Origin: an uncultured Bacilli bacterium
GTDB taxonomy: Bacteria; Bacillota_I; Bacilli_A; RFN20; CAG-826
NCBI GenBank assembly: GCA_944376605.1
Contig: CALWDE010000012.1
Span: forward strand, 4,360 to 68,359
Reading direction: 5' to 3'
Length of the DNA: 64,000 nt
The position numbers were made by a program, and so were the translations under genes. The number at the start of each line of letters is the position of its first letter. Positions within the stretch are counted from its first letter, which is position 1. This document shows positions 42,682-58,717 of this stretch, piece after piece. A model generated the notes under the pieces. It did not search any database, was not told the origin of the DNA, and saw only the letters and a list, made by a program, of their open reading frames with translations.

Positions 42682-43266
42682 ATGCAGTTTTCTTTTTCTG
42701 ATGAAGATCTCATTCTTTTTATGCGTCTTGGGAAAGAGGAGTACAGAGAGCTACTTCTATTACGTTACTGGCAAAAGATGTCTTGCTTATGTCATTTAGC
42801 TTGTCCCTTTCTTTCTTATTCTTTTGACTTAGCAGAGTTCTCCTCTTCTTACTTAAAAGTATTTTATATGGCGAGTAATAATTACCGCCTCGAAGGAACT
42901 CTATTTGAAACTTATTTTGTGAATGCTTTAAGAAATGAGATCTATATCTTTTTGCATAAAGAAAAAGTGAGAAGAGAAGTCGCTTCTCTTCGCCTAGAAG
43001 ACACTTGTTCTTCAAGCACTTCTCTCACTTTTGGGGATGTGGTAGCTTCTCCTGCTTTAGGGCCAAAAGAAGAAATCATTCATCTAGATTCTGCAAGGAT
43101 TTTAGCAGAAAGAAGTCTTCTTCTTTCGCGCGAGGAAAAACGTCTTATTTCCTTAAGAAGAGAAGGAAAACCATATGAGGAATGCGCGAAAATTTTAGGC
43201 CTAACAAGGAAACAAGTGCGTGTGCGCATGAACCGTATCCGAAAATGTTTACTTATCGTAGAATGA
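42682..43266 (+). CDS. alternative sigma-70-family factor (ECF/SigH-like, regions 2 and 4 only)
   Basis: Region 2-like DEDLILFMRLGKEEYRELL...TYFVNALRNEI. Region 4 HTH LLSREEKRLISLRREGKPYEECAKILGLTRKQVRVRMNRIRKCL. RBS AAGGAGG. Confidence 0.65.
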   Translation: MQFSFSDEDLILFMRLGKEEYRELLLLRYWQKMSCLCHLACPFLSYSFDLAEFSSSYLKVFYMASNNYRLEGTLFETYFVNALRNEIYIFLHKEKVRREVASLRLEDTCSSSTSLTFGDVVASPALGPKEEIIHLDSARILAERSLLLSREEKRLISLRREGKPYEECAKILGLTRKQVRVRMNRIRKCLLIVE

Positions 43267-43283
43267 AAAACCCTGCAAAAGTC
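43266..43283 (+). repeat. copy 2 of 18-nt motif AAAAACCCTGCAAAAGTC (overlaps sigma gene stop)
   Basis: Direct reading. Followed by nested hairpins TTTCTC-gaa-GAGAAA. Confidence 0.6.
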
Positions 43284-43380
43284 TTTTCTCTTTACTTTTT
43301 GTTATTTCTCGAAGAGAAAACCTCTTGAATTCCACCTCCCCCTATTCTTAATATGAACCAATCTTTTGGGAGGCTTTTTA

Positions 43381-44172
43381 ATGGCTAAATCGACAAAAAT
43401 GAATAGTCGAAAGAAGTGGACGCTTGGCGGCATTGGATTGTTCCTTGGTGTTGCCCTTGTTACCACTGCTTCCGCCACCTACATCATTGGAATTAATCAA
43501 ACAAATCAAAATCCAAACGTTGGCGTGGATGTTGATACTGTTACCAATAATTCTGTTACCTTCTCTATGAAAGTACATGAAGGCAGCCGCTTACGTGTTG
43601 GTGAAACAGAAAACACTAGCGGAGATGTCGTTGTTGTAGAAGATGCTAGTGATACCGCCATGCAAGTTACTTTTGACGTAACAATCAAGTATGGCGAGCA
43701 ATATCTTGCTGATGGCGAAACAATGACCATCAATTACTCTTTTGATTATTGGAGTGAGGATACTAGCTCTGCGAATAAACCTTTACTTGTAGCGGATGGC
43801 CTTTTAAGCATTAGAGGCGAAATTGATAAGACTGTTTGCTCTACTGAAGAGGAAGGCGTCGCAGATCGTTGGACTTATGTGGATGCACCAAATGCTACTG
43901 CAGTACCTACTGCGACTGGTAGCGGCTGGACTGTTAGCACAGATGGTAATGTAACTACTGCTACTGCAACACTTACTCTCACCTTTAAGTGGGGTTCTTT
44001 CTTTGATAATCAAAGCCCTGCCACTTTCTATAACGCGAAATATGATCCTTCTACCATTACAGCAGAAGATGCTGGCAAAATCGAAGCAGAGTTAGATGCA
44101 ATGCACGCAGCTCTTGATAAGAAGAATATTACGCTTACTGCTGAGATTACGAAGGCAGGCGCAGGAGCCTAA
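43381..44172 (+). CDS. TasA/camelysin-like secreted protein 1 with SipW-cognate-type signal peptide
   Basis: ATG 43381 after GGGAGG. N-terminus MAKSTKMNSRKKWTLGGIGLFLGVALVTTASATYIIGINQT resembles TasA signal (…GGGTWAAFND). 264 aa, size of TasA. Confidence 0.55.
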   Translation: MAKSTKMNSRKKWTLGGIGLFLGVALVTTASATYIIGINQTNQNPNVGVDVDTVTNNSVTFSMKVHEGSRLRVGETENTSGDVVVVEDASDTAMQVTFDVTIKYGEQYLADGETMTINYSFDYWSEDTSSANKPLLVADGLLSIRGEIDKTVCSTEEEGVADRWTYVDAPNATAVPTATGSGWTVSTDGNVTTATATLTLTFKWGSFFDNQSPATFYNAKYDPSTITAEDAGKIEAELDAMHAALDKKNITLTAEITKAGAGA

Positions 44173-44250
44173 TTTCCCTTTCTTACTCTTCTAGCCCATG
44201 GTGACATGGGCTCTCTTTCGTTAAGGTAATTTTATAAAGAAGGAATATTT

Positions 44251-57564: not shown

Positions 57565-58646
57565 AAAAAACTTTGCTATCTCTCTTACTCACCTTAGTAG
57601 GGACTTTGTCTCTTACATCTTGCGGCTTTTTTAACACAGGGTCTGCAGGATATTTAATTCAAGACGCTACAACAAGCGTGAATGAAAATGGGGACACTGT
57701 CTTAGTGATTACCTTTGATGATCCTGAAGAGCCTCCGATGGAAATTACCATCCCGCAAGGCGCATCTGGAGTAGGTATTGCTGATATTGATAGCTCTTAT
57801 GATGAAGAGACTTCTCTTTTAACGATTACAATCACTTATACCGACTCTAGCTTATCTCCCTATGTTATTGAAGTGCCTGTGATTCAAGGCACAGACGGAG
57901 CAGGGATTGAATCAATTGGGGTAGAGCCTGGTGAAGATGGCGCGACAATTCTTGTCTTCCATTTTACAGACGGCAGAGAGCCAGTCCGCGTATCTATTCC
58001 GCAAGGAGAAAGAGGAGTGGGTATCGCTTCTATTACAAGAATTGATTATGAGAACCCAGATTATTTAATCTTACAAGTTACTTATGATGATGAGAGCATA
58101 GAACCTACCCTTATCCAAATTCCTTTAAGTGAATTAAGAGGAGATGGTATTGCCTATATCACCTTAGAAGATAATGGTGATCAATATGTACTACGAATCG
58201 AATATACTTCTGGCTTTGTTAATACAGTGCCTTTTGAAAAGCCTCAAGCCACTCAGTGGCTCTATGGAAATGGCAACCCCTTAACTAGCCAGGGAAAGAC
58301 AGGAGACTTCTACTTCAATACTTCCACAGGGGAAATCTATGTAAAAGAAGAATCTGGCTGGGTGCTTCAGATGGTGTTACATGGAGAATCTACGACAGAT
58401 CCTGCTGCAGTCTATACTGTGACATTTAATCCAAATGGTGGCAGTTTTACAGATAGCCAAATTCCTCCTTCTGTACGTGTAGAAGAAGGGCATTATGTTC
58501 CAAGTTACAGTATCCCCTTCTGCGAGAAAGAAGGTCAAACCTTCATTGGCTGGTGGACGGATGAAGTATTAACACCAAATTCGGGTCACTTTACTTCTCT
58601 AACTCCCGTCTTTAGCGATATGACGCTATACGCGCAGTACGAGTAA
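57561..58646 (+). CDS. lipoprotein with tandem ~80-aa PQGxxGVGIA repeats and C-terminal Listeria-Bacteroides-type repeat
   Basis: Lipobox LSLTSC. Repeats ITIPQGASGVGIADI / VSIPQGERGVGIASI. C-terminus YTVTFNPNGGSF...FIGWWTDEVL. Confidence 0.6.
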   Translation: MKKTLLSLLLTLVGTLSLTSCGFFNTGSAGYLIQDATTSVNENGDTVLVITFDDPEEPPMEITIPQGASGVGIADIDSSYDEETSLLTITITYTDSSLSPYVIEVPVIQGTDGAGIESIGVEPGEDGATILVFHFTDGREPVRVSIPQGERGVGIASITRIDYENPDYLILQVTYDDESIEPTLIQIPLSELRGDGIAYITLEDNGDQYVLRIEYTSGFVNTVPFEKPQATQWLYGNGNPLTSQGKTGDFYFNTSTGEIYVKEESGWVLQMVLHGESTTDPAAVYTVTFNPNGGSFTDSQIPPSVRVEEGHYVPSYSIPFCEKEGQTFIGWWTDEVLTPNSGHFTSLTPVFSDMTLYAQYE

Positions 58647-58660
58647 AATCCCTGCAAAAT
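58645..58660 (+). repeat. copy 3 of motif (AAAATCCCTGCAAAAT), overlapping the lipoprotein stop
   Basis: 16/18 match to copy 2, same orientation. Confidence 0.55.
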
Positions 58661-58676
58661 TAACTTAAAAATAGAG

Positions 58677-58717
58677 AAAAAGAGAGAATAGATTTCCTTT
58701 ATCTTCTCTCTTTTTTC
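58677..58717 (+). terminator. rho-independent (bidirectional-type) terminator ending the accessory operon
   Basis: AAAAAGAGAGAA-n15-TTCTCTCTTTTT, 12-bp stem, then T-run. Confidence 0.65.

Follow-up and report, generated by a model that had tools for sequence, protein, structure and literature searches.

The DNA analyzed in this study (hereafter the window) is a stretch of 64,000 nucleotides (nt) from contig CALWDE010000012.1 of an uncultured Bacilli bacterium. The open reading frame (ORF) list of the window contains a run of twelve ORFs, all on the + strand, at 42682-58646, which are called g1 to g12 here. The run is bordered upstream by rlmB (41948-42673, SpoU_methylase) and downstream by rpmG (58808-58960), secE (58989-59189) and nusG (59167-59745). 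A preliminary description of this DNA had placed twelve co-oriented genes between rlmB and rpmG-secE-nusG, and its coordinates were correct. Eleven of these genes, g2-g12 (43381-58646), are one vertically inherited cluster, in which a SipW-type signal peptidase gene and genes for proteins with a common secretion signal are joined to those for a McrB-like GTPase, its McrC-type partner, an ABC exporter, a beta-helix protein and a lipoprotein. The remaining gene, g1, is a neighbour of the cluster and not one of its components. The features of the locus are as follows (aa, amino acids; TM, transmembrane).

g1, 42682..43266, + strand: sigma-70-family factor, 194 aa (Sigma70_r4_2, 35 bits)
g2, 43381..44172, + strand: secreted or anchored beta-rich protein, 263 aa, with the cluster-specific signal; likely the major subunit
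Hairpin, 44193-44212, + strand: in the g2/g3 gap, directly after g2; GC-rich, 8 bp, weak T tract; possible attenuator
g3, 44251..44973, + strand: g2 paralogue, 240 aa, signal as in g2
g4, 45010..45741, + strand: small protein, 243 aa, with signal and first strand in common with g2/g3
g5, 45738..46778, + strand: SipW-type (archaeal/ER-type) signal peptidase I, 346 aa (TIGR02228)
g6, 46765..49647, + strand: protein of 960 aa, signal of the same type; putative large substrate, accessory or adhesin-like
g7, 49692..51494, + strand: membrane-anchored McrB-like AAA+ GTPase, 600 aa (TM segments, AAA_5 in relatives, NxD)
g8, 51498..52769, + strand: cytosolic McrC-type partner, 423 aa; N-terminal part DUF2357-like, C-terminal part beta-rich, ending in a CxxC...CxxC zinc ribbon
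g9, 52773..53588, + strand: ABC ATPase of the ABC-2/DrrA type, 271 aa (ABC_tran, 1.7e-22)
g10, 53585..55189, + strand: ABC permease, 534 aa, with ~12 TM segments
g11, 55186..57564, + strand: exoprotein of 792 aa, anchored at its N-terminus; contains Ig-like domain(s) and a right-handed beta-helix
g12, 57561..58646, + strand: lipoprotein, 361 aa (Flg_new, 1.6e-11; lipobox LTSC)

Names for six of the proteins (g1, g2, g5, g7, g8 and g11) were looked up and found in no source, and a cluster look-up likewise gave none.

The conservation of the cluster was analyzed in a set of 80 loci from 80 species, collected with a g7 profile, in which the g7 identity ranges from 38 to 72%. The metagenome-assembled genomes (MAGs) of this set are labelled Bacilli, Mollicutes, Acholeplasmatales, Anaeroplasmataceae, Onthovivens, Enteromonas, Scatosoma, CAG:324 and similar, and we take them to be RF39-type and neighbouring orders. 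In 67 of the 74 loci whose flanks are long enough, the sipW gene (g5 in the window) immediately precedes g7 on the same strand, and the stop and start codons often overlap. After g7, the genes for g8, the ABC ATPase, the permease, the beta-helix protein and the lipoprotein follow in the order of the window in 49 of 58 loci. These two facts indicate that the two halves of the cluster are one unit. The preliminary description had allowed for a chance juxtaposition of halves that are never syntenic elsewhere; they were found to be syntenic in about 50-67 of the 80 species. As the g7 identity goes from 72 to 38%, the identities of all components drop in parallel. In the Acholeplasmatales loci L079 and L082 the gene order is rearranged and the clustering is retained. 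The GC and base composition of the twelve-gene region is uniform with that of the flanks. A mobile island was rejected on the grounds of the uniform GC content and of the component identities that fall together across the loci.

The sigma factor g1 had been proposed as a dedicated regulator of the system. A NusG-based scan of related loci revealed nine that hold rlmB-sigma-rpmG-secE-nusG with no cluster in that slot. The sigma factors in the slot are 186-280 aa in length (eight of 186-204 aa, and 280 aa in L085), and both they and g1 align colinearly with Bacillus subtilis SigH, the query being confirmed by a 408-bit match to the SigH model. In the seven slot sigma factors scanned (six of the nine and that of L005), SigH models were among the best specific matches, at 19-56 bits, all of them far below the cutoffs. 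The only family match of g1 in Pfam and NCBIfam was Sigma-70 region 4, and its score with the SigH equivalogs (TIGR02859, NF006148) was below cutoff (13.2 bits vs 294.8). Among the 80 loci, a sigma gene adjoins the cluster only in the lineage of the window and in L005 and L006, two close relatives. The slot between rlmB and rpmG-secE-nusG is the SigH position in the B. subtilis gene order. Since the same slot holds a sigma factor in nine cluster-free loci, and since it adjoins the cluster in a few lineages only, g1 is not dedicated to the cluster but is the divergent sigma factor of the lineage in the ancestral SigH slot. A dedicated regulator was rejected on this slot position in cluster-free relatives and on the SigH-like matches. 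The cluster would have been inserted beside this gene, and the tempting misreading of an adjacent sigma factor as the regulator of the system is corrected by synteny.

The junctions of the run were examined in the window. The gaps are 8 nt for rlmB/g1, 114 nt for g1/g2, 78 nt for g2/g3, 36 nt for g3/g4, -4 nt for g4/g5, -14 nt for g5/g6, 44 nt for g6/g7, 3 nt each for g7/g8 and g8/g9, and -4 nt each for g9/g10, g10/g11 and g11/g12. The earlier statement that nearly all junctions overlap or have gaps of 45 nt or less holds for most of them, but not for g1/g2 and g2/g3. The start of g2 is most likely ATG 43381, with GGGAGG 8 nt 5' of it, in agreement with the genes called on an identical metagenome contig; TTG 43366 is less likely than this ATG, which is backed by a ribosome-binding site. 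The gene call on the identical contig also gives 46765 as the start of g6. The g6 frame is open for 75 codons 5' of this likely start (46540-46764); the additional stretch is Lys-rich, overlaps the 3' end of sipW and is probably untranslated. The hairpin after g2 is terminator-like and could lift the g2 transcript above the downstream genes, as for a major subunit. For the entire g2/g3 spacer that holds it, the fold z-score was not significant. Promoter-like sites showed no excess (31 found vs 37.8 expected in shuffled sequence), terminator-like sites were somewhat commoner than expected (21 found vs 13.6), and an Rfam scan of the window gave no match.

The proteins g2, g3, g4 and g6 have no Pfam or NCBIfam match, and each of them carries the cluster signal, which consists of a K/R-rich start, a hydrophobic stretch and then G-F-(A/S)-x-(W/F/Y). 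Among the 1145 ORFs of the cluster loci, 161 have this signal, and 158 of the 161 run in the direction of g7; in the control, which was 0.5 Mb of related loci without the cluster, it was found in 1 of 519 ORFs. Most signal-bearing ORFs begin no farther than ~6 kb upstream or 8-10 kb downstream of the point where g7 starts. A hidden Markov model (HMM) built from g2-type proteins only and stripped of the signal detected 74 g3-class proteins and the g3 of the window (E=5e-4). Because this HMM detects the g3 class, g2 and g3 are regarded as paralogues. The same HMM did not find g4, and the hhalign alignment of g4 with g2/g3 (Prob 96.8% over 57 columns) is confined to the signal and the first strand. 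Of the three TasA-size paralogs proposed previously, g2 and g3 are therefore homologous, but g4 shares with them the signal and first strand only. The alignment of g6 with g2/g3 covers the signal only (Prob 61%, E=7.8e-5), in agreement with the earlier view that the 960-aa protein carries the same type of signal.

The homology search for g2 gave 4 proteins with a single query and 10 with a 60-sequence profile. The g2 family is present in most loci, and g2/g3-type genes occur 5' of sipW in one to seven copies per genome. Seven such paralogues stand in tandem in L020 (2868-8877), a strong local expansion of the substrate family, and the same locus has two further small signal-bearing ORFs after the lipoprotein gene (19532-20703). 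The g4-type and g6-type genes usually follow the lipoprotein gene; the window, L009 and L011 are the only loci in which they flank sipW. It is also only in these three that g6 lies between sipW and g7; elsewhere it is found at the end of the cluster. A small g4-type gene is paired with a big g6-type gene (600-1000 aa) in L016, L033, L040, L079 and L082. A search of the PDB sequences with the g6 family profile gave nothing useful.

The preliminary description regarded g2, g3 and g4 as TasA-like fibre candidates. Peptidase_M73 matched neither these three proteins nor any of 60 family members, and the TIGR04088 signal HMM gave no match in g2-g6 or in the 60 family members. TasA (8AUR, 5OF1) was not retrieved from the PDB by the g2/g3 family profile, and only the signal peptides were aligned, at Prob 1.3%, when the family was compared with TasA by hhalign, using a TasA query checked to be identical to 8AUR. 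An AlphaFold2 model of g2 was calculated from a 12-sequence alignment. The confidence score (pLDDT) of the model was 44.9, which makes it unusable, and Foldseek on the model found nothing below E 0.2. The poor quality of the model is due to the alignment of just twelve sequences. The g2/g3 family shows sporadic weak Ig-like matches and mostly beta secondary structure. With no sequence match in Peptidase_M73, TIGR04088 or the PDB and with a g2 model of this quality, a relationship of g2, g3 and g4 to TasA or camelysin is at most putative.

The signal peptidase g5 scored 61.6 bits with TIGR02228, above the cutoff of 51.85. Since it reached 65 bits vs a cutoff of 190 bits with NF046067, the equivalog model of Bacillus SipW, g5 is not the Bacillus SipW equivalog. 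The SMS, HR and GD.N...D motifs, which hold the catalytic Ser, His and Asp of SipW, are at least 90% conserved in 73 g5 homologues. The protein has three TM segments, with an extra and unusually conserved TM helix at the N-terminus, and a charged C-terminal tail.

The N-terminal domain of the GTPase g7 has ~4-5 TM segments and is joined by a linker to the NTPase core, which contains an NxD motif. Three motifs of the core, ILEGLSGTGKSS (Walker A), VLDE (Walker B) and GTAN-K-D-D, show a conservation of at least 90% across 76 homologues. The window protein scored 19 bits with AAA_5, whose cutoff is 22 bits, and 16 of 16 relatives matched this family (best E 1.5e-5). The match of the g7 family profile to McrB in the PDB (6hz4) was weak (E 0.83), and a phmmer search of the PDB with the NTPase part gave no match. 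None of 16 g7 members matched the FtsB/DivIC family of Pfam. With the PADLOC model PDC-M26A, g7 gave 4.8e-41. Component A was the only one of PDC-M26 to be matched; g8 and the other window proteins showed no PDC-M26 match. The g7 family comprises more than 7,500 clusters at 90% identity and occurs in at least 590 species.

The partner g8 was assigned to the McrC type by its N-terminal DUF2357. Its conserved residues are P101, E102, D111, E117, N118 and four Cys, and there is no conserved Lys anywhere in the protein. No PD-(D/E)xK family was present among the 25 commonest of the 66 Pfam families matched by 100 g8 members. The model of g8 contains no long coiled coil, as judged without a dedicated coiled-coil predictor. 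An active restriction nuclease was rejected for g8, in which no nuclease motif, no conserved Lys and, among these 25 families, no nuclease family was seen. Residues 101-118 (window 51800-51860) form an acidic cluster in the DUF2357-like part, which could bind metal or contact the GTPase. Related pairs, g7'-g8', stand alone in L053 (9941-13031), L073 (9443-12498), L078 (4112-7247) and L083 (9449-12620). In these pairs, g7' has ~555-575 aa and g8' 461-473 aa, and the neighbouring genes encode proteins of ~390-1220 aa, some with lipoprotein-like signals by eye. The lone pairs may be a paralogous module with another client, and their existence indicates that the g7-g8 pair can act in another setting.

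Among the export and envelope genes, the best subfamily models for g9 were drrA and GldA, and some relatives of g10 matched PF16949 and ABC2_membrane_4. The score of g11 with Beta_helix was 24 bits, just under the cutoff, and the protein has one TM segment. The g11 family has a mean column identity of 41% and many invariant D, N, G and R residues, and one relative matched Big_2; g11 may be an enzyme. Its family profile found nothing useful among the PDB sequences. The lipoprotein g12 contains four ~45-aa repeats, recognized by eye, and a C-terminal Listeria-Bacteroides repeat domain. One homologue of g6, g10 or g11 showed Hom_end_hint (1.4e-7) and Hint matches, which suggest an intein-like insertion. 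Several earlier assignments agree with these analyses: g5 as a SipW-type (S26 archaeal) peptidase, by TIGR02228 and the motifs kept in its homologues; g7-g8 as a TM-anchored McrB-like AAA+ protein with a Zn-ribbon partner, by the TM segments, AAA_5 in the relatives, NxD, DUF2357 and CxxC...CxxC; and g9-g12 as ABC ATPase, permease, beta-helix protein and lipoprotein, by family matches, TM segments and the lipobox.

Some further observations were made around the cluster. In L021 (13187-14782), an extra zinc-ribbon ORF of 137 aa follows g8, and the ABC ATPase has 387 aa with an N-terminal extension that appears receiver-like by eye. Immediately upstream of the cluster, L039 (Acholeplasmatales, 4900-6925) and L040 (Anaeroplasmataceae, 5054-7115) have a divergently oriented gene pair. 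It encodes a protein of ~245 aa with a response-regulator-like N-terminus and a membrane protein of ~430-445 aa, and may be a real local regulator in these two loci. In the window, cysS (39820-41169) and a MgtC-family gene (41190-41930) are located farther upstream of the run, and at 34531-38207 a NuoF-like flavoprotein gene (625 aa) adjoins that of a [FeFe]-hydrogenase large subunit (597 aa), which fits a fermentative anaerobe. A second insertion is found at 59745-63462, between nusG and rplK (63462-63923), and contains the following genes.

60142-60723: lipoprotein with no Pfam match
60811-61104: ArsR-family regulator
61108-63258: heavy-metal P-type ATPase

ArsR-like and HMA-ATPase-like ORFs, judged by their N-terminal sequences only, also follow nusG in L005.

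The cluster was then compared with known systems. The NxD clade of McrB GTPases was defined by Bell et al. (eLife 2024, PMC11090510), who in two sentences named CoCoPALM, in which an NxD McrB-like GTPase is associated with signal peptidases, and which were suggested to be pilus assembly factors; the details were deferred. The CoCoPALM GTPase has an FtsB-like single TM segment and a coiled coil, coiled coils are present on both partners, and the NxD clade is mostly defence-linked (PMC11090510). No follow-up paper detailing CoCoPALM was found in the literature, nor was anything relevant on RF39 with TasA, on SipW in Mollicutes-type lineages, on PDC-M26 or on cultured RF39. Compared by its published description, CoCoPALM is the closest known system. 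It is resembled by g7 in the NxD with a following second Asp and in the N-terminal membrane segment, by g8 as a DUF2357-type McrC homologue, and by the cluster in its conserved association with a signal peptidase; pilus assembly is also the reading given by the authors of CoCoPALM. The differences are the ~4-5 TM segments of g7, with no FtsB/DivIC match in the 16 members, and the g8 model without a long coiled coil. The substrates with a cognate signal, the ABC exporter, the beta-helix protein and the lipoprotein are features of the cluster that do not appear in the CoCoPALM account. It had been stated previously that the whole was not recognised as a described system. This was an overstatement, since the combination of a McrB-like GTPase and a signal peptidase had already been named (PMC11090510).

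The tapA-sipW-tasA operon of B. subtilis and the sipW-bsaA-bsaB-bsaC operon of Clostridium perfringens also have a SipW-type peptidase beside small secreted proteins of one signal type. In C. perfringens, the products are polymerising subunits and a large accessory protein, and a separate ATP-driven machine aids export (PMC11580942). The larger accessory protein is BsaC there and would be g6 here. The TasA signal is similar in outline, with KKK, a hydrophobic region and G-x-x-T-W. The cluster differs from both operons in the extra TM helix and long tail of g5 and in g2, g3 and g4, which have no detectable sequence relationship to TasA or camelysin. Neither operon has a McrBC-like pair, an ABC exporter, a beta-helix protein or a lipoprotein, and the second half of the cluster is, as had been noted, without a counterpart in the TasA loci. 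With the McrBC systems of Escherichia coli and Thermococcus gammatolerans, the cluster has in common an AAA+ GTPase with Walker A, Walker B and Nx(x)D motifs and an adjacent DUF2357-type partner. In g7, however, TM helices replace the DNA-reading domain and the motif is NxD, not NxxD, whereas g8 shows neither a PD-(D/E)xK motif nor a conserved Lys and has a zinc ribbon in addition; the context is secretion, not restriction. By analogy only, the cluster is also similar to type IV filament systems, which likewise have a dedicated peptidase, small subunits with a special hydrophobic signal, a membrane NTPase, polytopic membrane partners, minor subunits and a large tip-like protein. No component is homologous: SipW stands for PilD and the McrB-like AAA+ protein for PilB. 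In the cluster signal, moreover, the conserved motif does not precede the hydrophobic stretch but is placed at its C-terminal end.

With moderate confidence, we regard g2-g12 as an envelope system of RF39-type and neighbouring gut Bacilli for the assembly and export of a surface fibre or coat, and we infer the following mechanism. The signal-bearing proteins would enter the membrane via Sec and be held there by their N-terminal helix. SipW would then cleave them, most plausibly after G-F-(A/S), since this site fits the -3/-1 rule. The cleaved proteins might assemble into a surface fibre, pilus or coat, with g2 as the putative major subunit, g3 and g4 as minor subunits and g6 as a large accessory protein or adhesin. 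The membrane-tethered GTPase ring with its McrC-like shaft could be a cytoplasmic motor or gate coupled to SipW; both carry unusually conserved membrane parts. The ABC exporter, the beta-helix protein and the lipoprotein would form the export, anchoring or modification side.

Several points weigh against this interpretation. The sequence searches and the g2 model gave no sign that g2, g3 or g4 polymerise or resemble TasA or pilins. That SipW cleaves these proteins, and at which site, is inferred only, the role given to the GTPase pair is argued by analogy, and the lineage appears to be uncultured. In L053, L073, L078 and L083 the shorter g7'-g8' pairs have neither sipW nor ABC genes beside them. 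A conserved gene order may survive in small genomes even where functional coupling is not tight, and the beta-helix protein and the ABC-2 exporter would also fit glycan export. More tentatively, the cluster might be a new kind of surface-filament assembly machine in Gram-positive-type bacteria, in which a membrane-tethered, nuclease-free ring of the McrBC-type GTPase, with the partner inserted in it, serves as motor or gate, SipW as prepilin peptidase, and the ABC exporter, beta-helix protein and lipoprotein as the envelope-spanning part. If true, the machine would be a defence motor turned to cell-surface construction.

It is worth considering what else the cluster could be. A surface coat or glycoconjugate system, in which the ABC-2 exporter and a beta-helix enzyme export and trim a polysaccharide or glycolipid and the SipW substrates are coat or S-layer-like proteins retained on the membrane or wall, seems to us rather unlikely. 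The best matches of g9 to ABC-2/DrrA/GldA-type exporters, the ABC-2 membrane families matched by some g10 relatives and the sporadic Ig-like matches of the g2/g3 family are in line with it, as is the strongly conserved beta-helix of g11, whose invariant Asp, Asn and Arg residues resemble those of carbohydrate-active beta-helix enzymes. No glycosyltransferase, flippase or polymerase gene, however, was present in the cluster in any locus inspected, and the tandem amplification of g2/g3-type genes (seven in L020) together with a dedicated signal peptidase is more typical of polymer subunits. We consider it improbable that a SipW secretion module (g2-g6) and an unrelated envelope module (g7-g12) are independent and joined by operon inheritance alone. 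The lone g7'-g8' pairs in four loci and the changing position of g6 would be explained in this way; but the sipW-g7 junction is the tightest of the cluster (67 of 74 loci), the clustering outlasts rearrangement in L079 and L082, signal-bearing genes are located on both sides of g7-g12, and both SipW and g7 have conserved membrane parts.

Little credence is given to an anti-phage or anti-plasmid defence system, in which a membrane-located McrBC-type module with an ABC ATPase would sense or block incoming nucleic acid. The descent of g7 and g8 from McrB and McrC, the match of g7 to the PADLOC candidate PDC-M26A (4.8e-41) and the mostly defence-linked NxD clade (PMC11090510) are what such a system would lead one to expect. 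Yet g8 has no PADLOC match, neither a conserved nuclease motif nor a nuclease family was seen in it, TM helices take the place of the McrB DNA reader in g7, and the neighbours are secretion and surface genes, not defence genes. The single context, the identities that fall together, the occurrence in at least 590 species and the uniform GC content also argue against defence. RF39 is predicted to be mostly walled and spore-forming, with Acholeplasmatales and Anaeroplasmataceae as reference non-sporulating families (PMC10868615). A sporulation-linked spore coat or appendage system under the adjacent SigH-type sigma factor, which would echo the TasA/CotN-SipW-SigH link of B. subtilis, could be imagined from this prediction and from the SigH-like g1 directly upstream, but is highly improbable: the sigma gene adjoins the cluster only in the lineage of the window, L005 and L006, the cluster is also present in Acholeplasmatales and Anaeroplasmataceae MAGs, and no other sporulation gene is linked to it. 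The cluster was also found in MAGs labelled as wall-less lineages.

The g7 family is widespread in uncultured gut Bacilli with reduced genomes, that is, in RF39-type lineages and their relatives. If the assembly and export of a surface fibre or coat is indeed the function of g2-g12, the cluster would encode a main surface structure of a widespread gut lineage and would matter for adhesion, contact with the host and phage receptors. It would, in addition, be a case in which a McrBC-type restriction motor is re-used for protein or envelope work. The CoCoPALM class would gain content by it, namely a substrate family with its signal, a SipW variant, and a linked ABC exporter, beta-helix protein and lipoprotein. 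The cluster probably encodes the assembly of a cell-surface structure, along a route of which very little has been described.

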